Below, piece after piece: positions 15,946 to 32,823 of a stretch of DNA of 64,000 nt. The number at the start of each line of letters is the position of its first letter. Within the stretch, counting starts at the first letter, position 1. A model generated the notes under the pieces. It worked only from the letters and a program-made list of their open reading frames with translations. It searched no databases and had not been told where the DNA came from. The DNA is from a virus (lineage: Duplodnaviria; Caudoviricetes), in the IMG/VR virus record IMGVR_UViG_3300022401_000003, positions 1,250-65,249 of that record, one strand, 5' to 3'. The position numbers and the translations under genes were made by a program.

Positions 15946-18900
15946 ATGCCTATATTTGAGTACAACGGAAAGAAGTACAATGTGAAAGACGAACACATTG
16001 ACAGCTTTATGAAAGATTTCCCCGATGCTTCAACCATTATGGAGCGTGAGGGGAAGAAGTATCGTGTTAGGTCGGCTGATTACAGGACGTTTATGTCTGA
16101 ACAACAGAACAGCGAGCCTCAACAGCCCGAACAGCCTGCGGCAGCACCTCCTGCACCCGAAGTGGAAGAGCCTGCAACTCCGACAGGCGAAACGCCGCTC
16201 ACAGAACAGGATAAAATACGTTTCAGCGCAGGTATTGAGCAGATGAAACGCCGTACACGTCAGTCTATGGACGATTTCAACGAACGTATGGCAACAATGC
16301 GTGAGTACCACGAGAACGCACCATTAGGCGGCGGACAGACTGTCGAGGGACGTATGATGTTCAACCCTCAAAGCGGCAAGGTAGAGAAAACCTACATCAC
16401 CCCACTTGGCAACAGGTACACAAGCAAGTGGCTTGCCGATATGGAAAGTTTCAGATACCGACAGGCGGCTGATATGTCCGTCAGTGGGCAGTTGCGCCGT
16501 GCAAGGTTGAAACTCGCAGAATTGCAGGCAAAGCGGAACGAGAGAGCCAGCGAGGTACACGATGAGGCTACGGAGTTCAATAACACCAAACTGACAGGAT
16601 TAGGTCATGCGCTCATCGGAGGTCAGATGTATGTAGGTATGCAACAGAGCGACCCCGAGAAGAATGCTTTGAATGTGGCTATTCGTCAGACAGAGGAACT
16701 TATCAAAGACCTCGAAGAACAGCAAGACCGTGAACAGGGTGAAGATGTTGGCTTTTGGCGTGGCTTCGGTCGTATTGCAGGCGATTTCAGAACGTGGGAC
16801 TTCGGTATGAGCGATTTGAGCGATGCAATGACAATGATGCACGCTGACCAACTTGTAGATGACAATGCGACCGAGGGCGAACGTGAAGCCTACAACGAAA
16901 TGATGGGCGCACTCTACAACAAGGAACAGGCGGAGCAGGCGTATGGCGGCAATGCAAGTTTTTGGAACAGAGCAGGTGTAATGACAGGCTATATGCCGTC
17001 CTTTATGCTTGACTTCGTGATTACAGGCGGTGGTTTCGAGGGTATCAGCCTACTTTCAAAGGGTGGCACAAGAGCCGCCACAAAGGTAATCGGAAGTGAG
17101 GTTGTTGAGGAAATGGCAGAACAAGGCTTCAAGACCTATGTGCGAAACAACGGTGTCAGAGGTTTCGGACAGTATGCAGGTAATTGGACCATTAAGGCAT
17201 TGGGTACAATGGGCGATGACTTGCTCATTCGTGCGCCGCTTATGACCAACACTGTGCAGGTTGGCAAAACAACCTCCGACATCATTGACCGCAAATTGGG
17301 TAATGTTGTCGTAAACGAGGACGGAACATACGATTTCAGCAATGATGAGACTTGGGGCAGTGCCATTTGGCAAGGCGAAGCCAATGCTATCATCGAGAAC
17401 TATTCGGAAATGTTCGGCGCACATCTTGACCCTGTTGTTACATTCGGTAATATGAGCAAACTTGCCAATGTGGTAGGTGCTAAACGTCTCGGTGCTGTGC
17501 TTTCAAAGGCTGATGCAGGTGCTTTGAATGGCATTATGGGACAAACACACCAACTGTTCAACAAAATGGGTGTGAGCGACTATTTTGGCGAGGTTACAGA
17601 GGAATACTATGGTCAGATGTGGCGCACAATGCTCAATCTTGACGATGCCTATCAGCAAAACCCGGACGGAACACGCACCAACCTATTTGCCACAGGACAA
17701 TTCCACGGTGATGTTTGGGGCGGTATGGCTCTTTCTATGGGATTGATGGGTGCAGGTAAGCACACTCTTTCGGCAGCACACTATACCTCAATGAAGCACA
17801 GTGTAAACAAGGCTGATGCACACGCAACAGAATTGCTTGGCAAAGAGGTATGGGAGCCGTTGAGAACATCGCTTGACCTTACCACCAATGAGGATATGGG
17901 CGCAATGGCAGAGGCTATTGTGAACGATAAGGACTTCACAGACGAAGAGAGAGCGGCTGTTCTCACCTATATGGAGCGTTCTATGATGATGAGAGGTTAC
18001 AACCTCGGAACACTCGCACAAAGAAGAGGTGCAGCACAGGATGAGGACGTACAGGCTCTTGATGAAAGTTACATTGACGGTTACAGCATTGAGAGTTCGC
18101 AGGAAATGAACGATGCCAAGAATATGTATGACTATCAACGTCAGAGGGCATTGGCAATCATTGAAGAAGATTTCCTTGCCGACATCGAGAACGACCCTGC
18201 GGCACATTTGGACTACATTCGTAACTCCGAAGATTGGAGTGATGAGGAACGAGGCATTTTGCTTGACTACCTCAACTCAAAGCAGGTGTATGACGGTATG
18301 ATACAGCGTGTGCGTGATGATATTGACGGACGCATCGACCAGAGCAACGCAATGGTAAATGCCCGTACCAACCGCACAACAGGTATGATACAGGGCGCAA
18401 CGATGAAGCAGGACGACCGCCGTGTGTATGTTATCAACGGAAACCTTGTGCAGTATGCAGACGGTAGCGGTATTGACATCGAGGCTTCGGACAACAGTAT
18501 CATTGTTCGTGATGCAGAGACAGGCGCACTTGAACAGGTGTCGCCCGATGCTATATTGAACATTGATGAGGCGTTAGACCCCATAACTGAAATGCAGACT
18601 GCCGCAGATGCTATCCGTCAGCAGTACGCACAGGAGGCAGCCAACAGGATTGATGGTGTTGTTACATTCAATCCGGGCGACACATACACCATTACAGGCG
18701 ATGATGCACAGATACAGGTGCAGATTGTAGCCAATGATGAGGGTATTGTGGATAATGGGGACGGCACTGTAAATGTGTCGGACGGTACAAACGTGTTCCC
18801 CTTGGCCAAGGAGACCATACAGCAACAGGCAGAGGCGGCACAGTTGGCACGTGTGGCGCAGTTCGAGCAGCAGAGAGCTGCCGAGAATGCAGCCTATCAG

Positions 18901-21900
18901 CAGGCTATTGAGGAAGAAAGCAGACCGCAGTATGCCCTCAACGACCTTGTTTCCCTCCGTGATGAGAACGGAAATGCTGTTCGTGGCAACATTACTACCG
19001 ATGCAGATGCAGACGGAAGATATGAGGTTTACACCGAAGCACCTATCAATGGCAAGCGTGTAAACCTGTTCACTCGTGATGAACTCGACAGTATGCTGAT
19101 GGAGCATAACGGAGTGGTAATCGAGCAACCTGCCGAGAATGAGGGTAACAATGGTGGCGAAAATATTCCCGAAAATGGCAACATTGCCCCTCAAAATATT
19201 CCTGCAATGCAGAGAATACCAAAGGATATGCAGGGCAATCCCCTTTATGAGCAGACCGACAGCGATACCGCTTGGGACGCTATCGTTGAGCAGACAGAGG
19301 GCGATGAGGCTATGGCACAAACCGTAGCCGATGGAATGGTTGCCGACAAAGAGGCAGCTTTGAAAAAATTGGAGAAAGCCAAGTCGAAAGGCGGTGCTAC
19401 CATTGCCGAGAAGATTGCTGCCGAGAAAGAACGCAAGGCGGCGATTGATGCGGCACAGCAGGAACTGAACATTTGGAAGAAGATTGCCGGTACTGCCAAC
19501 CGCAGAAGAATGGATGCAGAAGCAGAACGCAGACGTGTTGCCGATGAAGCCGCAGCACTCCGCAAGGCAGAGGAAGAGCGATTGCGTGCTGAACGTGAGG
19601 AAGCAGAGCGCATAGAGCGTGAAGCCCTCAACGGTGTTCCCGATATGGTGGACGATACTCCACAGGACGCACGAGCAAGAGGTTACAGACGTGTCAGTGG
19701 GCATAAGATTGACCGCCAAGAGCCTTTGCAGGCAGTACAGGGTAAAGAGGTTGCAGTACGTTTCAGCGATGATGCCATTGCCAATGGTCGTGTAGCAGTC
19801 ATTGATGCAGCCCAATTACAGCCGAGCCACATTCAAGGTGTGCGCAATCCTCTACACTTCATTGATGAGGCACAGCCGAAAGAGCGTAACGATGAAGCGA
19901 GTGTAATGTCGGCACGTAAGATTGCCGGGAACATTCGCCCCGAGGAGATTACTTCTTCCGTTACCGCCTATACAGGTGCGCCTACCGTGAACGCACGAGG
20001 AGAAGCCATACAGGGCAACAACCGTAGTGATGCGCTCCGTCTTATGTGGGAGAGCCACCAAGACCAGGCAGCGCAGTACAAGCAGTATCTGATTGACCAC
20101 GCAGAGGAATTTGGCTTGAATGCCGATGATGTTGCGGCTATGGAACGTCCTGTACTTGTGAATATGCTTGACGTGGACGATGCAGAGGCTATCACTCTTG
20201 GTCAGTTCGTGGCACAGGACACCGAGAGCGGAGGAACAGAGCGTATCAAGCCGAAGAATGCTTTGCAGAAAATGGGCAACGATATGCGTTCATTCGCCAA
20301 CCTGTTGTTGAAGTCCAACGATGAGGACACATCATTTGCAGGGCTTGTGGACAACAACGGTGTTGAGGTGTTGAAGTGGATGAGCCAAAGAGGTTACATC
20401 ACTCCTACACAGTACAAGAGTGCTTTTGACAGCAAGGGCAACCTTACTGCCGAGGCAAAGAACGATTTGCGAGGTATTATGTATCAGAGCATCTTCAAGG
20501 GCGGCAGCACCCGACTTGAAGAAATGTTCAACGCTATGCCTGCAAAGGCTCAAAAGGCTATCCTTGCAACGGCATTCCGTGATTATGACAGCCCTAATGC
20601 AGACCGTATGATTGAGGAGATACAGAACTCAATCCGTGCGTTCTATGCCCTATCGCAAAGCGAGGACTTTGTAAACGCCAAGACGTTCAAGGATGCACGT
20701 TTGGCAGTAGAGGGTTGGAAAATTCAGTACCAAATTGATGATGTAACAGGCGAAAGTTACCTACCTGCCGAGAATTTCAGTAACTTTGCACTGCTTTTGG
20801 CAACGATGTATAAAGGCGACAACCAAAGCGTCATTCAAGGTACTTTCAACAAACTTTACGACCTTATTCAAGGTACACAAGAACCAAACCTGTTTGAGCA
20901 GCCGGACAACACGCCTCGCACGCTTGCACAGGCTATTTACGAAACATTAAACATTACCTACGATGGACAACAGCGAAGCAATGTATTGGTTGGCGATAGT
21001 TCAGCAAGCCAACGAGGGCAGCAAGGAAGCACAGGAAATGCTGCAACAGGAGAACGAATTGAGAGTGGAGAGCGGACAGCCGACAGTACAGGAAGCATTG
21101 AAGCAGAAAGCACAACAGGCAACGAAGCCGTATATCAACCCCAACCCGAACGAAAAGGACTTGAACAAACTCCTGATGGAGGACGGGAAACAGACGGCAC
21201 AGGAGTGGCTGATGACGCAACCCAAGAAGTATTGGGAGCGAGCAACCGAGGCGATATACGAGTGCTTGAAGAGGGGTTGGACACTTCATACAGGGAATAT
21301 TCAGAGTACAGCGAGAGAACTCGACGCACAACGGAATCCGAAAGGCTGGTAAGCCTTGCCAAACAGCACGGCTTATTCATTCCTGCCGAAGTTACCAAGA
21401 CTTTGACAGGTAAGGTAGCAAAGCGCACAGGCGAGAGTGTTGTTTACATCGACACAGCAGCAGGCAAGGTAACAAAGGTCAAAGACCCGTACGCCAAGGC
21501 TGCAATGAAAAGCGGTGTTCAGCCCGAAGATGCCGCCTTTGAACACCTTGTGCATAATCTCCTGTTCCCCGAAACCGCCTACACATTGGAGGGTATCAGC
21601 GAGGAAATGGGCGATGTTCGCATTGTACTGTCGCAGGACTTCATTCAAAACTACGAACAACCTACAAAGGAACAGATTGCGGAAGCACTTGCCGCACGTG
21701 GATTGTTCCCGGAAGATAACTACTCTTTCGGTAATGAACTTGTGTCTGTAACCGATGTAGAGGGCGATAACGTGTTGTTGGGTGAAGATGGTACGGTGTA
21801 CTTCATTGACCCTATTATCCGTTTCAAAAAGCCGTTGAGAGAGATTTTAGCGGCTCTTGGTGGTGCTGAACAGAAAGCACCTACCATTGGCGAGCAGATA

Positions 21901-24900
21901 CAGGCAGCAGAGGCAGAGGTAAACACCAACCCTACCGAAGCACAGAAAGAGGCAGGCAACTACAAGAAAGGACACGTTCAGATTGGCACATTCAACGTAA
22001 CCATTGAACAGCCGAAAGGCTCTGTACGTAGTGGCGTAGATGCTGACGGCAAGAAATGGGAGACCGAAATGCAGAACACCTACGGCTACATTCGTGGCAC
22101 AGAGGGTGTGGACGGCGACCATATAGACGTGTTCCTGTCTGATGATATTGACGGTTGGGACGGACACAAAGTGTTCGTAGTGGACCAACGTAATGCAGAC
22201 GGCAGCTTCGATGAACATAAGGTTATGCTTGGCTTCAATGACATCAACGATGCCGAAGCAGCCTATATGAGCAACTATGAAGAAGGTTGGCAGGGACTTG
22301 GAGCCATTACAGGCGTTTCCATTGAGGAGTTCGAGAAGTGGATAGCCTCATCACATCGCAAGACCAAAGCATTTGCAGAGTACAAGAGTGTCAAGACCAC
22401 CGAGGGACAGAACGCATCGGCAGACAAGGATTTGCGCCGCAAACTCGCAGACTTCAATGTTGGCGATGTTGTGCGTGATTACTACAATCAGAAGTTGTAC
22501 CGCATCAAAAAACACTCAACCAATGGTGTTTCTACCATTGCAGAACTCGATGCAGAGGGTAACGAGGTGGGTACTACCACAATGAACGCCCACAACAATA
22601 GCCGTTACAGCCTTGCCGAAGCACCTGTAAAGGCAGAGACTCCGACTATATCACAGGATAGTGAGCAAGTCAGCGACCAAGATAACGCACCATACACTAT
22701 CGCTCCGGCACAGTACACCACCAAGAAAGGCAAGGTGCTTGATATGCACCTCGTGAAGTTTGCAGGCACTCTGACGAAAGAACAGCAGAGAGCAGCCAAA
22801 GAACTTGCCAAAGCCGAAAAGGGTTGGTATGACCGTGAGCAGGGTGGATTTATGATGCGTAGCGAAGAAAGCGCAAAGCAGTTGGCGGACACCATTCTGA
22901 ACAATGACGATGCCGTGAGCGATGCACAGCCTGTATCTATGACCGACATTCAAGCGTTGAACAATGGCGATGTGCTGTTTACCGAGCCTCAACAGCCAAA
23001 GGAGCAACCCAAAGACGAAGAGTATCATCCTATTTGGCAATACTCTATCCACATTGATGCAGACGGCTACACTACTATTAGTCGTGATGATGTAAGCAGT
23101 GGTTATCCGATTGGTGATGCTCGTTTCAGATATAGCACAGATAGTCCAGAAGAAATGCTCGACATTCTCCGCAACCCATTGAACGGAATGCAGGAAGCAT
23201 TAGAAGCTGTCGGTGTTACTCTTGAAAACAAGATTAAGACACGTGAACTTGACCGAAAGATTAAGGAAGAGCGCAGACGTGAGTATGAGGCTTTGAGAGC
23301 CAACGGCTACAATGGCTATAAAATTGGCGATGAAGTAATCTATAAGGGCAAGAAAGCAAAGATACACGACCTTGAAGAATATGGCGAACATCGTCCTGTA
23401 CTTGATACAGGGCTTGCACCTGTTATGTATGAGGTTGCAGAATGGAGCGATATTCAAAGCGATACATCGTCTAAAACTATATTCTCATCAGCATTCAAAG
23501 ACCTTGTTAGCGAAGATGGTAAATACAACATCCGTATAACAAAGGTCGATGGAGCAAAGCGTATAGTTACGGCAGACCTTAATACTGCTAATGTCGGTGG
23601 TGAGGGATTAGTTTTGTCTTTTGAAGAAATGACAGACATCCTTAATAGCGGCAATTGGCAGGAGAAGATTGCATCCGAGCCTAAAAACGAGGGGCAGTTC
23701 GGGCTTGTCAGCGATGAACGTATGGCTGAACTTAAAGACAGATTGCGCAAGAAATTGGGCGGACAGATGAACATCGGTATCGACCCCGAAATACTTGCTA
23801 TCGGTTTGGAAATTGCTGTCGGACATCTTGATAGAGGTGTAAAGACCTTTACAGACTTTGCAAAGGTTATGATTTCCGATTTGGGCGATGTTATACGTCC
23901 ATACCTCAAAGCGTTCTACAATGGAGCGAGAGAACTTCCCGAAGTTGTTGAGAATGGTTTGGCTTCCGATATGACCTCATACGATGAAGTGCAGAGTTTC
24001 GATGTTGCCAACTTTGACAAACAAGGCATTGATGCTTTTGCTACTGCTGAAACTGTAACAAGAGAAGCTGAGGTCGCACAGGAAGTTGAGGTCGCACAGG
24101 AACGCATCAAGAAAACACGTTCCGCAAAGAAAGAAACCAAGAAAAAATCCGTAACTTCGCAGGAACAAACAGGAGGTTTGTTCGACGACTTATTTGCTGA
24201 AACCAACAAGGCTGATGCAGAACTGCATCGCCAATTTGCAATGACGGTAAAGGCTGATATGCTTGCGGCTCTTGACAATGGAACAAAACCATACAGAAGC
24301 ATTTTAGACCTACGCAAGCGTGCAAGCGAGTTGGGAATGGAGGTTGATAGTGACGGAAGAACCGACATTTTGTTGCAGGAACTTGTTGAGGACGGATTGG
24401 TTAGAGCCGCACGTGAGGTTATTGGTCGCAAAGGTAGAAACAGTCGTGCATCATACGATTTGATATGCAAACTCTATGAAATGCAACCTACCATTGCCGC
24501 ACGAAGCAGTAACCGTATCAAGATGCAGCAGTACTCCACTCCTCTCCCAATGGCTTGGATAGCCAACCACTTCGCAATGGCAAACAAAGCAGGTGGCAAG
24601 GTATTGGAGCCAACGGCAGGTAACGGGATGTTGGTATTCACAGTTCCTGTTGAGCAAGTTCACGCCAATGAACTTGACGAGACACGATTGGATAATCTGC
24701 GAGAGCAAGGATTTGCAGAGGTAACACAGCAGGATGCAACAGAACCTTTCGAGGGTGGTATGCAGTATGATGTTGTTATTGCCAATCCACCCTTTGGAAA
24801 ACGTGAGGCTGTGGAGTATGACGGAAAGATGATACCCGGACTTGACCCACAGATTACGTTGAACGCTCTTGCAAGTATGAAAGATGATGGCAGAGCAGCC

Positions 24901-27900
24901 ATAATCATTGGTGGAAATATGGAGTATGCAAGCAATGGTGCAATCAAAAGTATGAAACCATTCTTTACTTACTTGTATGACCACTACAATGTGAAAGGTG
25001 TTATTGATATGAGCGGCGGACTGTACGCAAAGCAAGGTACTACGTTCCCTACTCGTATGATACTTATAGATGGTCGCAGAAGCGATGAGGAGCGAGCGCA
25101 GACAGCCGTATATCCTCCTGTGGAGAGTAAGGCTATTCGCAAGGCTGAAAGTTTTGACGACCTGTATGAGATAATTAACGAAGTATTAAACTCTAAGGAA
25201 AAGACAAATGGAACAGAAATATTACGTAGCCGAGAAAGGCAGTTGGCATCTGTCAATAACGAAACATCCGGGAACACTGACGGAGCAGGACATCGTGAAC
25301 AACCTCGAAAGAATGATGATGTTGGAAGCAGAAGAAAACCAACAAAAGAGCATTCGGACGGAAGCGAACAGGTTTTACCAAGAGAACGTAGAACGAATAA
25401 TGCAGATGGTGAAACCCGGGCAGAAACTCCAAGAGATAACGCAGGAGGAAGCAGAAGTGTATCTGACACTGACATTCAGCGAGTGGGAACAGAGCGAGTT
25501 TCCACAAACGGAGTGGGATTAAAGCAGACTCCAACCGAACACAAGAAACGTACTCTTACAGATGAAAAGAGTGCGTATCGTCCTCATAACAGTGCATTTT
25601 CACTTAACAGCGTTGCCCCTGCTGCAATGGTCGAGGCAATGGACAATGTGCTAACTCAAATTGAAGCACAGCACGGTAGCATTGACGAATTTATCAGAAC
25701 TGAACTCGGATATGACACCGTTGAGGAAGCACACCAGGCACTTGCCGCAGAACAGATGGATAGTGTTGCTATGGCTATCTATCAGATGAAGCAAGGACAA
25801 GCACTCATTATCGGCGACCAAACAGGTGTTGGTAAGGGTCGCCAAATGGCAGCACTTATTCGTTGGGCAGTTCAACGAGGTGAGAAACCTGTATTCATCA
25901 CACAGAAAGCAGACCTATTCTCCGATATTTACCGAGACTTGGTAGATGTTGGAAGTGGAGACCTTGTGCCGTTTATTTTCAACTCTGACGGTGCAATGGT
26001 TGATAGCAAAGGTAATACAGTACACAAACCTCTATCTTCCACTGAAATGGCAAAAGTATTTGCATCGGGAACATTGCCCGATGAATATGACTTCGCAGTG
26101 CTCACCTATTCACAGGTAAATACAGGCGATGCTGTCAGTCAGCAGGAAATGGAAGAAGCTGCCAAAAAGAGCGGCGCACGTACCAAGAAAAGCAAGAACG
26201 TAAAGAATGGCAAGGCTACACCAAAGGCTACATTCTTACGTGCCATTGCAGAGGATAATTATCTGTTCCTTGATGAAAGCCACACGGCAGCAGGTTCAAG
26301 CAATACAGGCGCATATCTCCAAAGCATTCTACGCACCGCAAAAGCAGCCACATTTGCAAGTGCTACATTCGCAAAGCGTCCCGACACAATGCCTTTGTAT
26401 GCAATTCGCACAGCGATGAGCCAAGCAAAGGTTGAGCCAGATAAAATGATTAGTATCATTGAAAAAGGCGGTGTAACTCTGCAAGAGATTATGAGCCGTG
26501 AATTGACTAATGCAGGGCAAATGGTACGCAGGGAGCGAGATATGAGCGATGTTATTACCGATTGGAAAACAATTACAGACCCCGAAACCGTTAGACGTGC
26601 AAGAGAGAACTACGACCGTACCATAGCGGCATTCAATGCCATCATCAAGTTCCAAGAGGACTACGTAAAGCCGATGATTGAAGCGTTGGATATGGAACTC
26701 GCAGTTATGGCAGAGAGCGCAGGTGTGAAGCGAGGCACAGATAAAATGGGCGTTGAGAACGTGCCATTTGCAAGCAAGACCTACAACTACACCAAGCAGC
26801 TTATGCTTGCCCTCAAAGTTGATGCTATTGCAGATGAGGTGGAAGCCGAAATCAATGCAGGTCGCCACCCTGTTATTGCGTTGGAAAGCACAATGGAGAG
26901 CAGCATTAAGGACTATGCCGCAGGCGAAATCATTGATGAGCCTACATTCAGTGCAAGCCTACTGAAAGGACTTGACACCGTTATGCAGTACACCGTAAAA
27001 GATGAGGACGGTAACGAACGCCACGAGCGATATTCTCCACAGGCATTAGGTCCAGCAGGAGAAAAGGCATATTACGAGTTGCAGGACTTCATTCGTGAGA
27101 GTACAAGCGACATCTTTATCAGTCCACTTGATGCCATTATCGAGCGTCTGCACGAGAAAGGATACAAAGTAGGTGAACTGACAGGACGTAATATGTATGT
27201 TGAGCGCAACGATGACGGACGTGTCGTTGTCAAGCGTAGAACCGACAAGGACAAAAAGAGAATGCAGCGAGAGTTTAACAGTGGTGTCCTTGATGTTCTT
27301 ATCCTCAACAAGTCTGCATCAACAGGTATCAGTCTGCACGCATCAGAGAAATTCAGCGACCAACGTCAGCGTTCAATGATTATTGCACAGCCATTGAGCG
27401 ACATCAACGACTATATGCAGATGATTGGACGTATAGACCGCACAGGACAGGTGCATAGAGGTTACTACATCAACCTCGGTCTGCCTGTTCCTGCCGAAAA
27501 CCGTTTCTTGATGATGCTTTCTACCAAGTTAAAGTCTTTGAACGCTAATACCACGACCTCACAGGATAGTGAAAGCAACGATGTAGAAGCACCTGACTTG
27601 CTCAATAAATACGGTAGCCAAGTTGTTGTAGAGTATCTACGAGATAATGTGGAAATCTATGAGAAAATGGGTACACCTTTGAAGAAAGGCGGACTTGGAG
27701 GCGGTCGTGTGCAAGCAAGCGAACTTGATGAGTACAAGCCACAGGAAGATGATGCACGAAAAGTTACGGGATACGTAGCCCTTTTGACCACAAAGGAGCA
27801 AGAGGAGTTTTACGATGATGTGGTAAGACGTTACAATGAATTGATTAAGTACCTCAACGATACAGGTAGCAACGATTTGAAGATTAACGTAATGCCACTT

Positions 27901-30900
27901 CGTGCCAAGACGATAGAGAGACGTGTATCATCAGAAGGCATTGACCCGAACGGCAGTAATCCTTTTGCACGCAATTCCTTTGTGGAAAAGGTGGAAATGG
28001 ACGTATTGAGAAAGCCGATGAAAGCCGATGAAATACGCAAGGTTATTGAGCAGATAAACCGAGGTGTTGCCCCAGCTGAATACTTGGAAAGTGTCATCGA
28101 GATAATCCGTAAAGAGGACGAAGCGAGAATTGCCGCAGAGGAAGAACGTTACGAGAAAGCAAAAGCGAAAGCCGTAGAGGATATTGCCAAGCAGACAGAC
28201 AAAATCAACGGACAGAAGAAACGTAGCGAAGAGGAAAAGCGTGTTGCCATAGAAAACTTTATCGCAGAGACTAACGAAAAGGTTGAAGCGAAGCACAATG
28301 ACAATATTCTACGCCTCAACCAAAGCAGCGACCAGATGATGCACCGCTTGAGAATGTTTGAAGTTGGCAAGTCTTATCTTGTGCCGGATAACCTTGAGTC
28401 GATGATTTTTGACTTTGCCACTCCTGCTATTTTCTGTGGATACAAAACAAAGGACAGCAAAATTACAGCCTCAACAACACTTGCGGTATTTGCTACCCTT
28501 GACGGTCGCAGACGCATTGAAATCAAACTGTCGCAAATTGATGCGTTGCGAAGCATTGACAAGATGACCAATGACAATTGGGATGCTGCACGTGCCACTA
28601 CGCTTGATAATTGGGATAGTCAGATACCAAGTGAGACACGAAAGACAGGTTTCATTATGACAGGAAATATCTTGCAGGCTATCGCCGATACACAAGATGA
28701 ATACGGAGGCTATCCGGGACAGCTCATTAGTTATACTGATATTGACGGTAATGTTCACGATGGTATCTTAATGCCCGACAAATGGAATGCATCAATGCTC
28801 AAAACAAGCGGTGCGCCATTGAGTAGTCGTTTGCAACAGATAAAAGACTATACGCCTATAACAAGCCACGATGGAAAGGTTGAAATTATGGGTAGCAGTT
28901 GGGCAAAGATGTTCTACCTCACTGTTCCTAAGACAAAGAAAGATGGTGCTGTTTACTATGAAAACAAGACCTTGCTACGTGCCGCAGGTGGAAACTTCTA
29001 CCCTTATCGTGGAAAGTTGCGTGCGGATATTCCCGAGGAACGTATAACAGAGGTTGTTAAGGAACTTACCAAATTGGGCGTAAAAGTCAAGGAGGAACAC
29101 CATAGTGATGATGCCTTAAATCGTGAGGGTGTCGGCTCATATACTGATGATGAGTTGGCTTTGGAGAGCGACCCTGTTTCAAAGCCAAGAGGAACGAGAA
29201 AGCAGCGCAGGGAGTTTGCACAGCGTGAACGTCAGAGAATGGCAGAACGTGTGGAACGCCTTGCAAAGAAACTGCATCTTGATAATGTTGAGGTCGTAAC
29301 TGATGCAAGTACATTGGAGGGCAAGAAACAGCGTGCAAAGGGTTTCTACACAAAGAGTACAGGCAAGATAACTATTGTTATCCCTAACCATTCAACTGCT
29401 TTTGACGTTGAACAGACTTTGCTCCACGAGGCAGTTGCCCACTATGGATTACGTCAGTTGTTCGGAGAGCATTTTGAAACATTCCTCGACAATGTATTCA
29501 ACAATGCAGATGAGGCTATCCGTCAGCGTATCGTTGCCCTTGCTGCAAAGAACGGCTGGGATTTCCACAAGGCTACGGAAGAATATCTTGCTATGCTTGC
29601 AGAGAACACCGAATTTGAGAACACCAATGCAAGTTGGTGGAGGCAGATTAAGGATTTCTTCTTGAATATGCTTCACAAGATAGGTTTTGAGGATTTCAGA
29701 GGAGTTACTCTGACTGATAACGAACTTCGCTATATCTTGTGGCGCAGTTATGAAAACCTTGCAGAGCCGGGCAGATACCGTAGCATATTGGGCGAAGCTG
29801 CTGATGTGGCTAAACAATACGAGTTGGGTGTTGGTAACTATTCAGATACCAACCTCAACCCGAATTTCGCCGCCGAAAGCGATGATGACCTCTATCGTGA
29901 TGGAGACCCCAAAATACACGAAAGGGAATTGGCACGAGACCGTTATGAAAGACGTGTCAAGACAGGTATGTTCCAATCACAGGAGGCATTGCAGGATAGT
30001 ATGCTCGGACTGAAAGAAGCAATGCAGGCTATCCTTGGCCAAGGAACAAACATTGAAGATGTGGACGGCTTCGAGAATGCTTATTTGGGCGAAAACCGCC
30101 TGTCGAGTGTGAACAAAGCCGAAGCAGATGCTTTCGCACAGACATTGTTCAAGCCAATGCTTGATGAGGTTGCCAAACTTTCCCGAAATGAGGCAGAGCG
30201 TGAGGAACTGACCGATTATATGATGGCTAAACACGGACTTGAACGTAATGCGTATATGCGTAATGAGGCTATCAATAACGGTGCTACTGATGCAGACCAA
30301 ACCGACTATGCAGGTTTAACAGCCTTAACAGGTATGGACGATGTTGCCGATGCCGAAGCGGAAGCACAGCGCATTGTTGATGATTACGAACAGGCACACG
30401 ACACAACTGACCTTTGGGAGAAAGTCAATGCCGTAAGCAAGGCTATTCTTCAAAAGTCATACGATTGTGGAATGATGAGCAAAGAGACATTCGATAAAGT
30501 TTCGGCTATGTACGAGTTCTATATCCCATTACGTGGCTTTGACGAAAAGACAAGTGCAGAGGCATACGCTTACCTGTCGCATAAACATAGTGCTTTCAAT
30601 GCTCCTATCAAGAAAGCAGAGGGACGTAGGTCAAAAGCCGATGACCCATTTGCCAACCTGCAATCTATGGCAGAGGGTGCGATAATGCAGGGCAACAGAA
30701 ACAAGTTGGTGAAACAGCGTTTCTTGAACTTTGCCCTCAACCACCCGAGCGACCTTGTGAGCGTTAGCGACATCTGGGTAGAATATGATGCAGTAACCGA
30801 TGAATGGAAACCTGTATTCCCGGACAACATCGAGAGTACAGACACCCCCGAAGAGGTTGAGCAGAAGATGCAGGACTTTGAGACAAAGATGGAGTCATTG

Positions 30901-32823
30901 GCACAGCAGTACCCCGACCAATACAAGAGAGGTAAAGATGCTATCGGCATTCCTTACCGCATTGTAGAGAGCCGAGATATGAGACAGCACCAAGTTGTTG
31001 TGAAGCGTGGCGGTAGAGATTATGTAATCACTATCAACGGCAACCCTCGTGCGGCGCAGGCATTGAACGGACAGACCAACCCCGACAATGATATGTCGGG
31101 TGCTATCGGTGCTATTCTTCGTGCAGGAGAAAAGATAAACCGTCAGTTGAGTGCGCTCTATACCACACGTAACCCGGACTTCATCGTATCGAACTTTATG
31201 CGTGATATGCTCTACACCAACAGTATGGCGTGGATAAAGGAAAGCCCGAACTACGCTCTGCGTTTCCACAGGAACTACCTAATGGTAAACCCTGTTACAA
31301 TGAAACGCTTATTGGCGAAATATCGCAAGGGAACGCTTGATATGAGCAACAGGACCGAAGCAATGTTCCATCAGTTTATGATGAACGGAGGCGAAACAGG
31401 CTATGCCAATATCCGAGACATCGAGCAGCATAAGAACGACATCCGCAAGGAACTGAAACGAGCAAACGGCAAACTGAAACTTGCACGTGCTTGGAGCCTG
31501 CTTGCAGAGAAGTTCGATGAACTGAACAGAGCTGTTGAGAACTGTGCCCGATTTGCCGCTTTTGTAACCTCTCGTGAAATGGGCAGAAGCATTGACAGAG
31601 CCATTTACGATGCAAAGGAGATAAGTGTAAACTTCAACAAGAAAGGTAGCGGAGCGAAGTTCTATGACAGCGTAGGACAGACAAAGGCAGGAAACGCAAG
31701 TGCATTGGTATCGGGACTTGGTCGTAGCGGTTACGTCTTTTGGAATGCCGCCATTCAAGGTACTACCAACTTCGGGCGACAGATGAAGCGACACCCGGCA
31801 AAAGCCTTTACAGGTGTTGCGGCAATGTTCCTGCTTGGTGCTATCGTGGCATATTTGGGTGGCGATGATGATGAGGACGACAAGAACGCATACTACAACC
31901 TGCCCGAGTATGTGAGACGTAGTAACATTTTGTTCCGTGCAGGCGACAGTTGGATTTCCATTCCTCTGCCTATCGAGTACAGAGCGTTCTACGGAATGGG
32001 TGAACTTATGACCTCTGTATTCAGTGGCAAGGAACACCTTACAGGTGGCGAGATTGCCGAGGCGGTTTTGGGACAGGCTACACAGATATTGCCTATTGAC
32101 TTCTTGGAGGGTGGCGGTGGATTGAACGCTTTTGTTCCGAGTGCTGCCAAACCATTGTGGGAAGCCTACGTTGCAGAAAAGAGTTGGACGGGTATGCCAC
32201 TCTATAAGGACACTCCTTTCAATAAGGATATGCCGGAATGGACGAAAGCATACAGCAGCACCAATAAACACATCGTGAACTTGGCGGCAACTCTGAACGA
32301 GGCAACAGGTGGCGACCCATACACAAAGGGAGCAATCGACATCAACCCTGCCAAAGTTGAGTATATGCTAAACGGTTATTTCGGTGGAGTGTTCGGTACT
32401 ATCGACAAACTGACAAAGACTGCTGAAACGATTGTCGGCGACAGAGAGTATGACCCTCGTAGCATACTGTTGGTAAACCGACTTGTCAAGGCAGGCGATG
32501 AACGTACCGAGTACCGTGCCGTAAATAATGAGTATTTCCGTTTGAAAGAGGAACACGACCGATTGAAAACCCGATTGAGACACTATGAGGAAGATACCGA
32601 CAACGGCATCTTTGACTATGCCGAGAAGATAGATTTCCTCTACAACTCGCCCGAATACGAGCGTTACGAAATCTTTGAGGACTACCGCAAGGACATTGAC
32701 GACCTCTACGATGAAATGCAGGAGGCAGTCGATGATGAAGAGCGCAAGGACATCGAAGCCGAGTTGAACGAACTCAAAAAGGAGATGATACAGGAAATGA
32801 ACACAACTCGCAAACGTAAATAG
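15946..32823 (+). CDS. Giant (5625 aa) polyvalent ejection protein, DarB-like: ParB/DdrB-like, kinase, inorganic pyrophosphatase, N6-adenine methyltransferase, strawberry-notch helicase, HExxxH and LPD38-like domains
   Basis: QGNNRS (~20010); TKVKDP..DVEGDNVL..YFIDP (~21420-21820); GNYKKGH..DGDHIDVF..DEHKVMLGF (~21955-22350); QYSTP..VLEPTAGNG..NPPF (24526-24795); GDQTGVGKGRQ (~25813), DESH (~26271); HEAVAH (29425); C-terminal LPD38-like region. Confidence 0.88.
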   Translation: MPIFEYNGKKYNVKDEHIDSFMKDFPDASTIMEREGKKYRVRSADYRTFMSEQQNSEPQQPEQPAAAPPAPEVEEPATPTGETPLTEQDKIRFSAGIEQMKRRTRQSMDDFNERMATMREYHENAPLGGGQTVEGRMMFNPQSGKVEKTYITPLGNRYTSKWLADMESFRYRQAADMSVSGQLRRARLKLAELQAKRNERASEVHDEATEFNNTKLTGLGHALIGGQMYVGMQQSDPEKNALNVAIRQTEELIKDLEEQQDREQGEDVGFWRGFGRIAGDFRTWDFGMSDLSDAMTMMHADQLVDDNATEGEREAYNEMMGALYNKEQAEQAYGGNASFWNRAGVMTGYMPSFMLDFVITGGGFEGISLLSKGGTRAATKVIGSEVVEEMAEQGFKTYVRNNGVRGFGQYAGNWTIKALGTMGDDLLIRAPLMTNTVQVGKTTSDIIDRKLGNVVVNEDGTYDFSNDETWGSAIWQGEANAIIENYSEMFGAHLDPVVTFGNMSKLANVVGAKRLGAVLSKADAGALNGIMGQTHQLFNKMGVSDYFGEVTEEYYGQMWRTMLNLDDAYQQNPDGTRTNLFATGQFHGDVWGGMALSMGLMGAGKHTLSAAHYTSMKHSVNKADAHATELLGKEVWEPLRTSLDLTTNEDMGAMAEAIVNDKDFTDEERAAVLTYMERSMMMRGYNLGTLAQRRGAAQDEDVQALDESYIDGYSIESSQEMNDAKNMYDYQRQRALAIIEEDFLADIENDPAAHLDYIRNSEDWSDEERGILLDYLNSKQVYDGMIQRVRDDIDGRIDQSNAMVNARTNRTTGMIQGATMKQDDRRVYVINGNLVQYADGSGIDIEASDNSIIVRDAETGALEQVSPDAILNIDEALDPITEMQTAADAIRQQYAQEAANRIDGVVTFNPGDTYTITGDDAQIQVQIVANDEGIVDNGDGTVNVSDGTNVFPLAKETIQQQAEAAQLARVAQFEQQRAAENAAYQQAIEEESRPQYALNDLVSLRDENGNAVRGNITTDADADGRYEVYTEAPINGKRVNLFTRDELDSMLMEHNGVVIEQPAENEGNNGGENIPENGNIAPQNIPAMQRIPKDMQGNPLYEQTDSDTAWDAIVEQTEGDEAMAQTVADGMVADKEAALKKLEKAKSKGGATIAEKIAAEKERKAAIDAAQQELNIWKKIAGTANRRRMDAEAERRRVADEAAALRKAEEERLRAEREEAERIEREALNGVPDMVDDTPQDARARGYRRVSGHKIDRQEPLQAVQGKEVAVRFSDDAIANGRVAVIDAAQLQPSHIQGVRNPLHFIDEAQPKERNDEASVMSARKIAGNIRPEEITSSVTAYTGAPTVNARGEAIQGNNRSDALRLMWESHQDQAAQYKQYLIDHAEEFGLNADDVAAMERPVLVNMLDVDDAEAITLGQFVAQDTESGGTERIKPKNALQKMGNDMRSFANLLLKSNDEDTSFAGLVDNNGVEVLKWMSQRGYITPTQYKSAFDSKGNLTAEAKNDLRGIMYQSIFKGGSTRLEEMFNAMPAKAQKAILATAFRDYDSPNADRMIEEIQNSIRAFYALSQSEDFVNAKTFKDARLAVEGWKIQYQIDDVTGESYLPAENFSNFALLLATMYKGDNQSVIQGTFNKLYDLIQGTQEPNLFEQPDNTPRTLAQAIYETLNITYDGQQRSNVLVGDSSASQRGQQGSTGNAATGERIESGERTADSTGSIEAESTTGNEAVYQPQPERKGLEQTPDGGRETDGTGVADDATQEVLGASNRGDIRVLEEGLDTSYREYSEYSERTRRTTESERLVSLAKQHGLFIPAEVTKTLTGKVAKRTGESVVYIDTAAGKVTKVKDPYAKAAMKSGVQPEDAAFEHLVHNLLFPETAYTLEGISEEMGDVRIVLSQDFIQNYEQPTKEQIAEALAARGLFPEDNYSFGNELVSVTDVEGDNVLLGEDGTVYFIDPIIRFKKPLREILAALGGAEQKAPTIGEQIQAAEAEVNTNPTEAQKEAGNYKKGHVQIGTFNVTIEQPKGSVRSGVDADGKKWETEMQNTYGYIRGTEGVDGDHIDVFLSDDIDGWDGHKVFVVDQRNADGSFDEHKVMLGFNDINDAEAAYMSNYEEGWQGLGAITGVSIEEFEKWIASSHRKTKAFAEYKSVKTTEGQNASADKDLRRKLADFNVGDVVRDYYNQKLYRIKKHSTNGVSTIAELDAEGNEVGTTTMNAHNNSRYSLAEAPVKAETPTISQDSEQVSDQDNAPYTIAPAQYTTKKGKVLDMHLVKFAGTLTKEQQRAAKELAKAEKGWYDREQGGFMMRSEESAKQLADTILNNDDAVSDAQPVSMTDIQALNNGDVLFTEPQQPKEQPKDEEYHPIWQYSIHIDADGYTTISRDDVSSGYPIGDARFRYSTDSPEEMLDILRNPLNGMQEALEAVGVTLENKIKTRELDRKIKEERRREYEALRANGYNGYKIGDEVIYKGKKAKIHDLEEYGEHRPVLDTGLAPVMYEVAEWSDIQSDTSSKTIFSSAFKDLVSEDGKYNIRITKVDGAKRIVTADLNTANVGGEGLVLSFEEMTDILNSGNWQEKIASEPKNEGQFGLVSDERMAELKDRLRKKLGGQMNIGIDPEILAIGLEIAVGHLDRGVKTFTDFAKVMISDLGDVIRPYLKAFYNGARELPEVVENGLASDMTSYDEVQSFDVANFDKQGIDAFATAETVTREAEVAQEVEVAQERIKKTRSAKKETKKKSVTSQEQTGGLFDDLFAETNKADAELHRQFAMTVKADMLAALDNGTKPYRSILDLRKRASELGMEVDSDGRTDILLQELVEDGLVRAAREVIGRKGRNSRASYDLICKLYEMQPTIAARSSNRIKMQQYSTPLPMAWIANHFAMANKAGGKVLEPTAGNGMLVFTVPVEQVHANELDETRLDNLREQGFAEVTQQDATEPFEGGMQYDVVIANPPFGKREAVEYDGKMIPGLDPQITLNALASMKDDGRAAIIIGGNMEYASNGAIKSMKPFFTYLYDHYNVKGVIDMSGGLYAKQGTTFPTRMILIDGRRSDEERAQTAVYPPVESKAIRKAESFDDLYEIINEVLNSKEKTNGTEILRSRERQLASVNNETSGNTDGAGHREQPRKNDDVGSRRKPTKEHSDGSEQVLPRERRTNNADGETRAETPRDNAGGSRSVSDTDIQRVGTERVSTNGVGLKQTPTEHKKRTLTDEKSAYRPHNSAFSLNSVAPAAMVEAMDNVLTQIEAQHGSIDEFIRTELGYDTVEEAHQALAAEQMDSVAMAIYQMKQGQALIIGDQTGVGKGRQMAALIRWAVQRGEKPVFITQKADLFSDIYRDLVDVGSGDLVPFIFNSDGAMVDSKGNTVHKPLSSTEMAKVFASGTLPDEYDFAVLTYSQVNTGDAVSQQEMEEAAKKSGARTKKSKNVKNGKATPKATFLRAIAEDNYLFLDESHTAAGSSNTGAYLQSILRTAKAATFASATFAKRPDTMPLYAIRTAMSQAKVEPDKMISIIEKGGVTLQEIMSRELTNAGQMVRRERDMSDVITDWKTITDPETVRRARENYDRTIAAFNAIIKFQEDYVKPMIEALDMELAVMAESAGVKRGTDKMGVENVPFASKTYNYTKQLMLALKVDAIADEVEAEINAGRHPVIALESTMESSIKDYAAGEIIDEPTFSASLLKGLDTVMQYTVKDEDGNERHERYSPQALGPAGEKAYYELQDFIRESTSDIFISPLDAIIERLHEKGYKVGELTGRNMYVERNDDGRVVVKRRTDKDKKRMQREFNSGVLDVLILNKSASTGISLHASEKFSDQRQRSMIIAQPLSDINDYMQMIGRIDRTGQVHRGYYINLGLPVPAENRFLMMLSTKLKSLNANTTTSQDSESNDVEAPDLLNKYGSQVVVEYLRDNVEIYEKMGTPLKKGGLGGGRVQASELDEYKPQEDDARKVTGYVALLTTKEQEEFYDDVVRRYNELIKYLNDTGSNDLKINVMPLRAKTIERRVSSEGIDPNGSNPFARNSFVEKVEMDVLRKPMKADEIRKVIEQINRGVAPAEYLESVIEIIRKEDEARIAAEEERYEKAKAKAVEDIAKQTDKINGQKKRSEEEKRVAIENFIAETNEKVEAKHNDNILRLNQSSDQMMHRLRMFEVGKSYLVPDNLESMIFDFATPAIFCGYKTKDSKITASTTLAVFATLDGRRRIEIKLSQIDALRSIDKMTNDNWDAARATTLDNWDSQIPSETRKTGFIMTGNILQAIADTQDEYGGYPGQLISYTDIDGNVHDGILMPDKWNASMLKTSGAPLSSRLQQIKDYTPITSHDGKVEIMGSSWAKMFYLTVPKTKKDGAVYYENKTLLRAAGGNFYPYRGKLRADIPEERITEVVKELTKLGVKVKEEHHSDDALNREGVGSYTDDELALESDPVSKPRGTRKQRREFAQRERQRMAERVERLAKKLHLDNVEVVTDASTLEGKKQRAKGFYTKSTGKITIVIPNHSTAFDVEQTLLHEAVAHYGLRQLFGEHFETFLDNVFNNADEAIRQRIVALAAKNGWDFHKATEEYLAMLAENTEFENTNASWWRQIKDFFLNMLHKIGFEDFRGVTLTDNELRYILWRSYENLAEPGRYRSILGEAADVAKQYELGVGNYSDTNLNPNFAAESDDDLYRDGDPKIHERELARDRYERRVKTGMFQSQEALQDSMLGLKEAMQAILGQGTNIEDVDGFENAYLGENRLSSVNKAEADAFAQTLFKPMLDEVAKLSRNEAEREELTDYMMAKHGLERNAYMRNEAINNGATDADQTDYAGLTALTGMDDVADAEAEAQRIVDDYEQAHDTTDLWEKVNAVSKAILQKSYDCGMMSKETFDKVSAMYEFYIPLRGFDEKTSAEAYAYLSHKHSAFNAPIKKAEGRRSKADDPFANLQSMAEGAIMQGNRNKLVKQRFLNFALNHPSDLVSVSDIWVEYDAVTDEWKPVFPDNIESTDTPEEVEQKMQDFETKMESLAQQYPDQYKRGKDAIGIPYRIVESRDMRQHQVVVKRGGRDYVITINGNPRAAQALNGQTNPDNDMSGAIGAILRAGEKINRQLSALYTTRNPDFIVSNFMRDMLYTNSMAWIKESPNYALRFHRNYLMVNPVTMKRLLAKYRKGTLDMSNRTEAMFHQFMMNGGETGYANIRDIEQHKNDIRKELKRANGKLKLARAWSLLAEKFDELNRAVENCARFAAFVTSREMGRSIDRAIYDAKEISVNFNKKGSGAKFYDSVGQTKAGNASALVSGLGRSGYVFWNAAIQGTTNFGRQMKRHPAKAFTGVAAMFLLGAIVAYLGGDDDEDDKNAYYNLPEYVRRSNILFRAGDSWISIPLPIEYRAFYGMGELMTSVFSGKEHLTGGEIAEAVLGQATQILPIDFLEGGGGLNAFVPSAAKPLWEAYVAEKSWTGMPLYKDTPFNKDMPEWTKAYSSTNKHIVNLAATLNEATGGDPYTKGAIDINPAKVEYMLNGYFGGVFGTIDKLTKTAETIVGDREYDPRSILLVNRLVKAGDERTEYRAVNNEYFRLKEEHDRLKTRLRHYEEDTDNGIFDYAEKIDFLYNSPEYERYEIFEDYRKDIDDLYDEMQEAVDDEERKDIEAELNELKKEMIQEMNTTRKRK
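20963..21352 (+). CDS. Putative nested gene (129 aa) in the +1 frame of the giant protein gene
   Basis: Protein-like helical composition (E/Q/L/M/W) while the host frame is a G/S/R/T linker; A-rich leader ATTAAACATTACCTACG-ATG. Confidence 0.5.
   Translation: MDNSEAMYWLAIVQQANEGSKEAQEMLQQENELRVESGQPTVQEALKQKAQQATKPYINPNPNEKDLNKLLMEDGKQTAQEWLMTQPKKYWERATEAIYECLKRGWTLHTGNIQSTARELDAQRNPKGW
25208..25522 (+). CDS. Putative nested gene (104 aa) in the +1 frame of the giant protein gene
   Basis: MEQKYYVAEKGSWHLSITKHP... acidic helical ORF spanning the MTase-helicase linker; leader ATTAAACTCTAAGGAAAAGACAA-ATG. Confidence 0.5.
   Translation: MEQKYYVAEKGSWHLSITKHPGTLTEQDIVNNLERMMMLEAEENQQKSIRTEANRFYQENVERIMQMVKPGQKLQEITQEEAEVYLTLTFSEWEQSEFPQTEWD

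Follow-up and report, generated by a model that had tools for sequence, protein, structure and literature searches.

The giant gene and the frame nested in it

Is an open reading frame (ORF) that lies out of frame inside a giant phage gene a gene of its own, or the shadow of the linker that it overlies? The question is raised by a stretch of 64,000 nucleotides from a virus (Duplodnaviria; Caudoviricetes), positions 1,250 to 65,249 of the IMG/VR record IMGVR_UViG_3300022401_000003, analysed as a whole and called here the window. The initial annotation had marked a 129-codon ORF in the +1 frame of a giant gene; this ORF, called X below, is present at 20963-21352, from ATG to TAA. Homology, selection and structure prediction indicate that X is very probably a genuine protein-coding gene, nested in the giant polyvalent gene of a temperate Bacteroides-type phage.

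15946-32823, + strand: host gene, polyvalent (DarB-like) phage protein, single ORF of 5625 codons
20943-20962, + strand: leader of X, at the 3' end of the sequence for the upstream domain (host ...ETLNITYD); A-rich, G-poor, weakly structured
20963-21352, + strand: putative nested gene X, +1 frame of 15946-32823; ATG at 20963, 129 codons, TAA at 21350-21352
21331-21828, + strand: Kinase-PolyVal domain of the host protein (E 2.6e-27; ratio of nonsynonymous to synonymous substitution rates, dN/dS, 0.11 in the host frame)

X and the host gene form an overprinted pair, as X is complete, has a start and a stop of its own, and lies in the other frame entirely within 15946-32823. It overlies host residues 1673-1803. 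The Kinase-PolyVal domain begins over the last 7 codons of X, and continues directly 3' of it. The host gene belongs to the polyvalent class, since PF18763, PF18762, PF18823, PF18857, a methyltransferase (MTase) and an Sbno helicase are found in one ORF of 5625 amino acids (aa). Domains are arranged in the order ddrB-ParB (residues 1276-1407), Kinase-PolyVal (1796-1961), InPase (1998-2133), then N6-MTase, Sbno-like helicase and LPD38. The nearest cultured relatives of the window are BS-TP4 and BKO1-TP3, two temperate Bacteroides phages (PMC12694917), and the homologue of the giant gene in BKO1-TP3 is labelled 'DarB-like antirestriction' in its annotation. X had been placed in a linker between a ParB-like and a kinase domain. 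The linker does end at Kinase-PolyVal, but the ParB-like domain is not adjacent to it, as ddrB-ParB ends at residue 1407 and a domain of ~265 residues lies between. This interval (20167-20961, host residues 1408-1672) is strongly conserved, with host dN/dS ~0.1, and has no match in Pfam.

The predicted product of X has a mass of 15 kDa, an isoelectric point (pI) of 5.3 and six helices. Tryptic peptides specific to X include EAQEMLQQENELR and GWTLHTGNIQSTAR. Read in the host frame, the same bases encode a low-complexity sequence, as had been noted (G17, E17, S14, T14, R13 of 130 residues; pI 4.4). Length and composition, on which the ORF had first been singled out, are no evidence if taken alone. 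The +1 frame of the giant gene has 238 stops in 5625 codons, and in 2000 synonymous shuffles of the gene the longest +1 run measured 132 +/- 27 codons, reaching 133 or more in 47% of them; T content around X is only 13%.

Selection acts on the nested frame

Homologous loci were fetched from IMG/VR (23) and from bacterial metagenome-assembled genomes (MAGs; 13 loci), together with contigs encoding database relatives of the +1 product; a distant blastn search of a plasmid collection gave no match. Loss of the ATG, or stops in the frame, had been named beforehand as what would speak against a gene. Neither occurs, as the ATG is kept and the +1 frame is open in 32/32 loci in which the ORF is nested in a giant gene. 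Full-length versions of X (129-194 aa), all ending at the same stop after ...NPKGW, are found in ten loci (L001-L005, L029-L031, L033, L034). In one of them 17 codons are inserted and in another 65 codons are duplicated in tandem, neither of which disrupts the +1 frame. In each comparison with the window, amino-acid identity of the +1 products exceeds that of the host-frame products (for example 75 vs 61%, 62 vs 48%, 95 vs 88%).

Variation is phased to the nested frame. Diversity at host codon positions 1/2/3 is 0.17/0.14/0.49 in the flanking domains, and 0.30/0.26/0.20 within X. At the ATG of X, diversity at the third positions of host codons drops from 0.45-0.6 to 0.07-0.18, and it rises again right behind the stop. 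When 7.6 kb (17212-24800) were scanned in five homologs, host position 3 was less variable than positions 1 and 2 only at 20956-21316. dN/dS was estimated in the manner of OLGenie, from an alignment guided by the host-frame protein, a conservative choice with respect to the nested frame; codon-bootstrap intervals are given in brackets.

Overlap: +1 dN/dS 0.28 (0.20-0.40), host dN/dS 0.99 (0.70-1.45)
Upstream domain: +1 dN/dS 0.94-0.97, host dN/dS 0.09-0.11
Kinase domain: +1 dN/dS 0.67 (0.45-1.06), host dN/dS 0.11

The +1 ratio in the overlap reached 1 in 0/500 bootstraps. The selection pattern over the C-terminal part of X persists in deep lineages, down to 57% kinase identity.

The host frame over X consists of two parts.

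20965-21246, + strand: host-frame linker proper; open, residues neutral (0.99), predicted disordered
21247-21351, + strand: stretch of low variation in both frames; end of X (EAIYECLKRGW...NPKGW) over the host kinase lead-in (RGDIRVLEEGL...SERTRR..ESERLV)

Both frames show little variation over the last 35 codons of X, and the ~14 codons next to the stop hardly vary at any of their three positions. In L086, in which the two genes are separate, the kinase frame is open over the part equivalent to 21247-21351, and only over the last ~38 codons of the small gene. When X was recoded with phage codon usage, the host frame acquired a mean of 9.7 stops, and 0/20000 recodings had none; stops observed in the host frame are 0 in every nested locus. 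Relatives of X that are not nested have 2-4 stops in the host-equivalent frame. The comparisons indicate that the giant protein is read through here as a disordered spacer, its open frame being selected and its residues not. Since the sequence of X is under selection, and the host frame is free of stops while its residues drift neutrally, the stretch is to all appearances dual-coding, and of the two partners it is the small gene that is constrained.

Three other long ORFs overlapping the giant gene were considered and rejected as genes. In five homologs host synonymous variation is normal over a 413-codon antisense ORF (18574-19815, - strand), and does not drop over the +1 ORFs at 18773-19063 and 21515-21751 (+ strand). 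All three appear to be non-coding shadows.

Two modules with relatives in and out of giant genes

AlphaFold2 modelled X with a mean predicted local distance difference test score (pLDDT) of 92.7, from an alignment of 37 rows. The model features three helices within residues 3-54, a loop, and helices at 79-83, 88-103 and 110-124, in line with the helical product anticipated from the letters alone. The host-frame product of the same bases (24-row alignment) scored 52.6 and is unstructured, except for a helix over its last ~14 residues; the two alignments were drawn largely from the same loci. The view of X as the real gene, and of the host linker as its shadow, is borne out by both results, as +1 dN/dS is 0.28 versus 0.99 for the host frame, and X folds while the host-frame product does not.

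X is made of two modules.

20963-21127, + strand: N-module, X residues 1-55; three helices; motif M[YF]WLAI.QQA..G..EA.E.L..E.E.R
21149-21349, + strand: C-module, X residues ~63-129; three helices; motif EAIYECLK.GW.L....IQ..ARE[IL]DA.RNPKGW, followed by the stop

Both are constrained. The +1 dN/dS is 0.35 (0.20-0.54; 25 sequences) over the N-terminal 49 codons, corresponding to the N-module, and 0.22 (0.12-0.35) over the C-module. In a profile search of 1.8 billion representatives, 149 clusters of small proteins (50% identity) matched one or both modules, which on this evidence represent two unnamed small domain families of about 150 clusters.

In L006-L022 and in BKO1-TP3 the nested ORF (52-75 aa) consists of nothing but the N-module, and varied domains follow. 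The C-module is found alone, with an ATG of its own, in other giant genes (L023, L036, L038-L040), and, again with its own ATG, in L035 and L037. Both modules also occur in frame in larger proteins. P0173, encoded by a solo chromosomal gene, consists of Kinase-PolyVal and then the C-module; P0213 joins the N-module to a domain which, by reading of the sequence, resembles part of the giant protein of the window; P0129 has two tandem N-modules; P0229 has an N-module and 200 further residues; P0138 has a C-module and DUF2442.

Some further observations concern the N-module. In L001-L022, which were fetched as relatives through the domain at 20167-20961, it is always next after that domain. In BKO1-TP3 (PQ571269) an unannotated 54-aa N-module ORF lies inside gp55 (L081:3557-3721), in the +1 frame of the 'DarB-like antirestriction' gene. 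In L002 (3752-4333, protein P0004) a 195-base tandem duplication in the linker gives a nested protein of 194 aa with two N-modules, both frames being open. In a bacterial MAG, P0229 (255 aa; L085:5001-5768) is encoded just 3' of a type I-C CRISPR-Cas operon (Csd1, Cas7, Cas4, Cas1, Cas2).

Association with Kinase-PolyVal

What X might do is suggested by the company of the C-module, which lies directly 5' of Kinase-PolyVal in all nested cases having a kinase. In L086 the C-module and Kinase-PolyVal are encoded by two separate genes, the C-module gene coming first. L037 has a kinase ORF that stands alone; the C-module ORF terminates where the conserved kinase core begins, and the frame of the kinase ORF has no stop anywhere along the C-module ORF. 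The Kinase-PolyVal family is without the usual helical C-lobe (PMC5512222). Because the pairing of the C-module with Kinase-PolyVal is seen in four forms (nested, abutting, separate and fused), and the kinase family misses this lobe, the leading proposal, though a tentative one, is that the C-module would serve the neighbouring Kinase-PolyVal as an accessory or regulatory partner, not covalently joined to it. An inhibitor or chaperone had been suggested in the initial annotation; the fusion in P0173 argues, at the level of gene structure, for an accessory domain and against a simple inhibitor.

In copies found outside giant genes, blocks of homology start at the ATG or within 35 bases of it, and end at the stop or within ~50 bases of it. 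In the chromosomal remnant seen in L042-L046 and L024-L025, homology to the window starts at 20963, that is, at the ATG. In L026-L028 and L032, X is found in phage contigs without a surrounding giant ORF, and the conserved block extends from ~35 bases before the ATG (relative to the window; ~50 among these copies) to ~12 after the stop.

A number of points weigh against X as a gene or against its link to the kinase. The dN/dS pairs are phylogenetically non-independent, and the intervals reflect the codon bootstrap only. Four runs labelled as metatranscriptomes carry the stretch as contigs, which give no information on start, strand or translation, and DNA carry-over is possible. X matched no family in Pfam-A (E up to 0.01), PHROGs (E up to 1) or PADLOC (E up to 0.1), TnpV (PF14198) included, and Foldseek found nothing at E up to 0.001 in PDB and BFVD. 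Copies outside giant genes retain an open host-like frame; for this reason they are probably recent derivatives or fragments of polyvalent genes, rather than old free genes, although their boundaries, as aligned, respect the small gene. The link to the kinase is not universal, as there is no kinase beside the module in L024, L026-L028, L032 and the distant L087 and L088. L005, which is 98% identical, has lost the kinase, the InPase and ~460 codons, and has X intact. Moreover, adjacency within one gene is partly physical linkage, and not functional association.

Among the variants listed within X for contigs from RNA libraries, 9/14 fall at third codon positions of X (own count), which is consistent with coding, but is not independent evidence. 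The best VIA-align score of X is Z = 4.9, and such matches are generic helical hairpins and three-helix bundles only. T4 endonuclease V, the best profile match in PDB, was disregarded (E 0.08 over 30 residues); the ESM Atlas gave no usable match. Longer in-frame relatives of X were not found by a word-based search, which is weak evidence. In L005 the deletion is bounded by two SLA microhomologies, and sets in 9 bases 3' of the stop of X.

It may also be that X is real but independent of the host protein, either as an effector of host takeover or counter-defence or as a chaperone for virion packaging, and that the linker site serves compactness and co-expression. This reading is possible, if doubtful. 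X is kept in loci that have lost the kinase or are without one (L005, L024, L026-L028, L032), versions made of the N-module only precede several different downstream domains, and one N-module fusion protein is encoded beside the type I-C CRISPR-Cas locus. Against this, the C-module turns up together with Kinase-PolyVal in four different gene arrangements; among these are, in distant genomes, a fusion in frame and a pair of separate genes.

Start of the nested gene

The leader of X is A-rich in all homologs, as had been claimed for the window. It contains 9 A and 1 G in 20 bases in the window, and 9-12 A and 1-2 G per 20 bases in the homologs, except for L022, which has 4 G; the average of the gene before ATG trinucleotides is 6.0 A and 5.4 G. 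The predicted folding energy around the start (dG, -25 to +25) is -4.8, against a gene mean of -8.5, and equals the value at the start of the giant gene itself. Four codons 5' of the ATG of X, the +1 frame has a TAA (20948-20950) that closes it, and this upstream stop is conserved. A start independent of the giant protein is likely, because the ATG is invariant, constraint begins there, and the conserved TAA lies four codons upstream. A-rich, unstructured leaders fit Shine-Dalgarno-independent initiation in Bacteroidota, and X would be made in this way, by internal initiation at the invariant ATG. Its template would be the late mRNA that also encodes the giant protein, and the two proteins would therefore appear together. 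The Bacteroides -7 motif TAnnTTTG was not used as evidence; one copy is found 175 bases 5' of the ATG, and the count in the window (45 vs 40 expected) is at chance level.

A programmed frameshift out of the host frame, yielding a truncated isoform of the giant protein that ends in X, is improbable. Phages do recode in this way, as with the tail chaperones G/GT and T7 10A/10B. However, the conserved TAA leaves only 12 bases for the shift, no slippery heptamer is evident there, and the ATG is invariant and marks the onset of constraint; in addition, C-module-only ORFs have an ATG of their own, and copies exist without an upstream giant ORF.

Even less probable is that an element acting at the nucleotide level (recombination linker, RNA structure or regulatory DNA) conserves the bases, the open +1 frame being a by-product. 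Polyvalent genes are highly mosaic (PMC5512222), in L006-L022 the architecture changes at a point between the N- and the C-module, and the near invariance of the last ~14 codons at all three positions would suit such an element. Yet variation is phased to the +1 frame (nested position 3 > 1 > 2; dNN/dNS 0.28), indels preserve that frame, the product folds confidently, and distant relatives, in-frame copies with a closed -1 frame included, keep the protein and not the DNA.

That X is a chance ORF without a product, the stop-poor shadow of an A/G-rich, T-poor, low-complexity linker, is hardly credible: the lengths reached in shuffles (mean longest +1 run of 132 codons; 47% at or above 133) and the local T content of 13% would allow it, but purifying selection is frame-specific, with a sharp onset at the ATG and a sharp offset at the stop, the ATG is invariant in 32/32 nested loci, the model reaches a pLDDT of 92.7, and in-frame homologs exist elsewhere.

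A second putative nested gene and a possible origin of linkers

Further downstream, the linker between the MTase and the helicase of the giant protein houses another candidate.

25208-25522, + strand: putative second nested gene, +1 frame, 104 codons (MEQKYY...EWD, then stop), in the MTase-helicase linker

Its frame and stop are kept in 23/23 non-redundant homologs despite insertions and deletions, and its ATG in 22/23 (GTG in L056). In the overlap, dN/dS is 0.30 (0.21-0.42) for the +1 frame and 0.92 (0.69-1.26) for the host frame; in the flanks the values are 0.87-0.89 and 0.04, respectively. The start region is among the least structured 0.2% of the giant gene. By these estimates the second nested gene is under purifying selection, with a signature like that of X.

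Both nested genes are preceded by the host residues E-[TV]-L-N, encoded by GAA-xxA-TTA-AAC (20941-20952 and 25180-25191 in the window), and the TAA within ATTAAAC terminates the +1 frame just 5' of each nested ATG. The shared motif may be a start signal, a sign of common origin or a coincidence.

The linker over X probably arose when neighbouring genes fused by read-through of a pre-existing small gene in another frame. Extended to polyvalent linkers at large, the same process would make one ORF a compressed operon, in which each effector module comes with a separately translated partner that regulates, completes or silences it in the producing cell, and the linker is the younger, overprinted reading. 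In this general form the idea is speculative and rather unlikely. The partners would be the C-module of X for the Kinase-PolyVal without C-lobe, and the second nested gene, which lies between the MTase and the helicase.

Relation to known overlapping genes

Summer et al. 2007 reportedly described the lambda spanin genes Rz/Rz1 in embedded, overlapped and separated architectures. Like the embedded member of such pairs, X is a complete small +1-frame gene inside a larger phage gene of the same strand, and as with Rz/Rz1 the architecture varies, X and the kinase being nested in the window, overlapped or abutting in L037 and L086, and fused in P0173. X differs in having neither sequence nor fold relation to these proteins and no lipoprotein signal, and its pairing with the kinase is one of gene neighbourhood and fusion. 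The host is, moreover, a multi-enzyme protein of 5625 residues, the overlap is confined to a neutrally evolving linker, and the giant gene holds at least two nested genes of this kind. X is thus an embedded same-strand phage gene, as in Rz/Rz1, and is unusual for its neutral host linker and for the presence of at least two nested genes in one gene.

In Bacillus subtilis, comS reportedly lies inside srfAB (D'Souza et al. 1994 and Hamoen et al. 1995 are said to have described it). As in the case of X, a small protein is encoded out of frame within a giant multi-module gene and is co-expressed from its mRNA; the product of comS is regulatory. Unlike X, comS measures 46 codons and resides inside an enzymatic module, not in a neutral linker; host, function and family are also different.

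In classical overprinting, as in phiX174 A*/B/K/E and in RNA viruses (reviews PMC8227390, PMC3494269), a stretch likewise encodes two proteins, one frame being ordered and conserved, the other disordered and biased. There the disordered frame usually belongs to a young accessory protein. Here, in contrast, the disordered and neutral frame is that of the giant host protein, and the nested frame encodes folded modules. As these modules have in-frame relatives elsewhere, it may be the host linker that was added more recently as a reading.

With its ddrB-ParB, Kinase-PolyVal, InPase, N6-MTase, SNF2/Sbno helicase and LPD38 domains, the giant gene falls among the polyvalent proteins of Iyer et al. 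2017 (PMC5512222), which include virion proteins of the P1 DarB type. The words 'overlapping' and 'linker' do not occur in that paper, and the sole passage with 'reading frame' deals with small neighbouring, not nested, ORFs. No report of nested genes in polyvalent-protein genes was found in the literature searched. Long same-strand overlaps with strong evolutionary support are rare in bacteria and in double-stranded DNA phages, and are invisible to gene callers; the annotation of BKO1-TP3 lists only the giant gene, and not the nested ORF. The selective roles are unusual, the small protein being constrained and the giant one needing only an open frame. The arrangement offers a concrete mechanism by which polyvalent proteins may gain linkers on gene fusion, and a candidate partner for the kinase family Kinase-PolyVal. 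Cultured temperate Bacteroides phages have the same arrangement, which makes it experimentally tractable.

Chromosomal remnants

The bacterial contigs L042-L046 and L024-L025 correspond to one chromosomal site, located between genes for a major facilitator superfamily (MFS) transporter and an AMP-binding enzyme. Two variants of the remnant are found at this site. In the first, X comes with the kinase and part of the InPase; in the second, it precedes an S24 peptidase gene, further genes and an integrase. At this site X is extended upstream by 46 codons. In L035 (2777-3900) a tRNA-Met gene directly precedes separate N-module (50 aa) and C-module (74 aa) ORFs, which overlie a kinase-frame ORF with one internal stop; this arrangement may be the remnant of an integration site.

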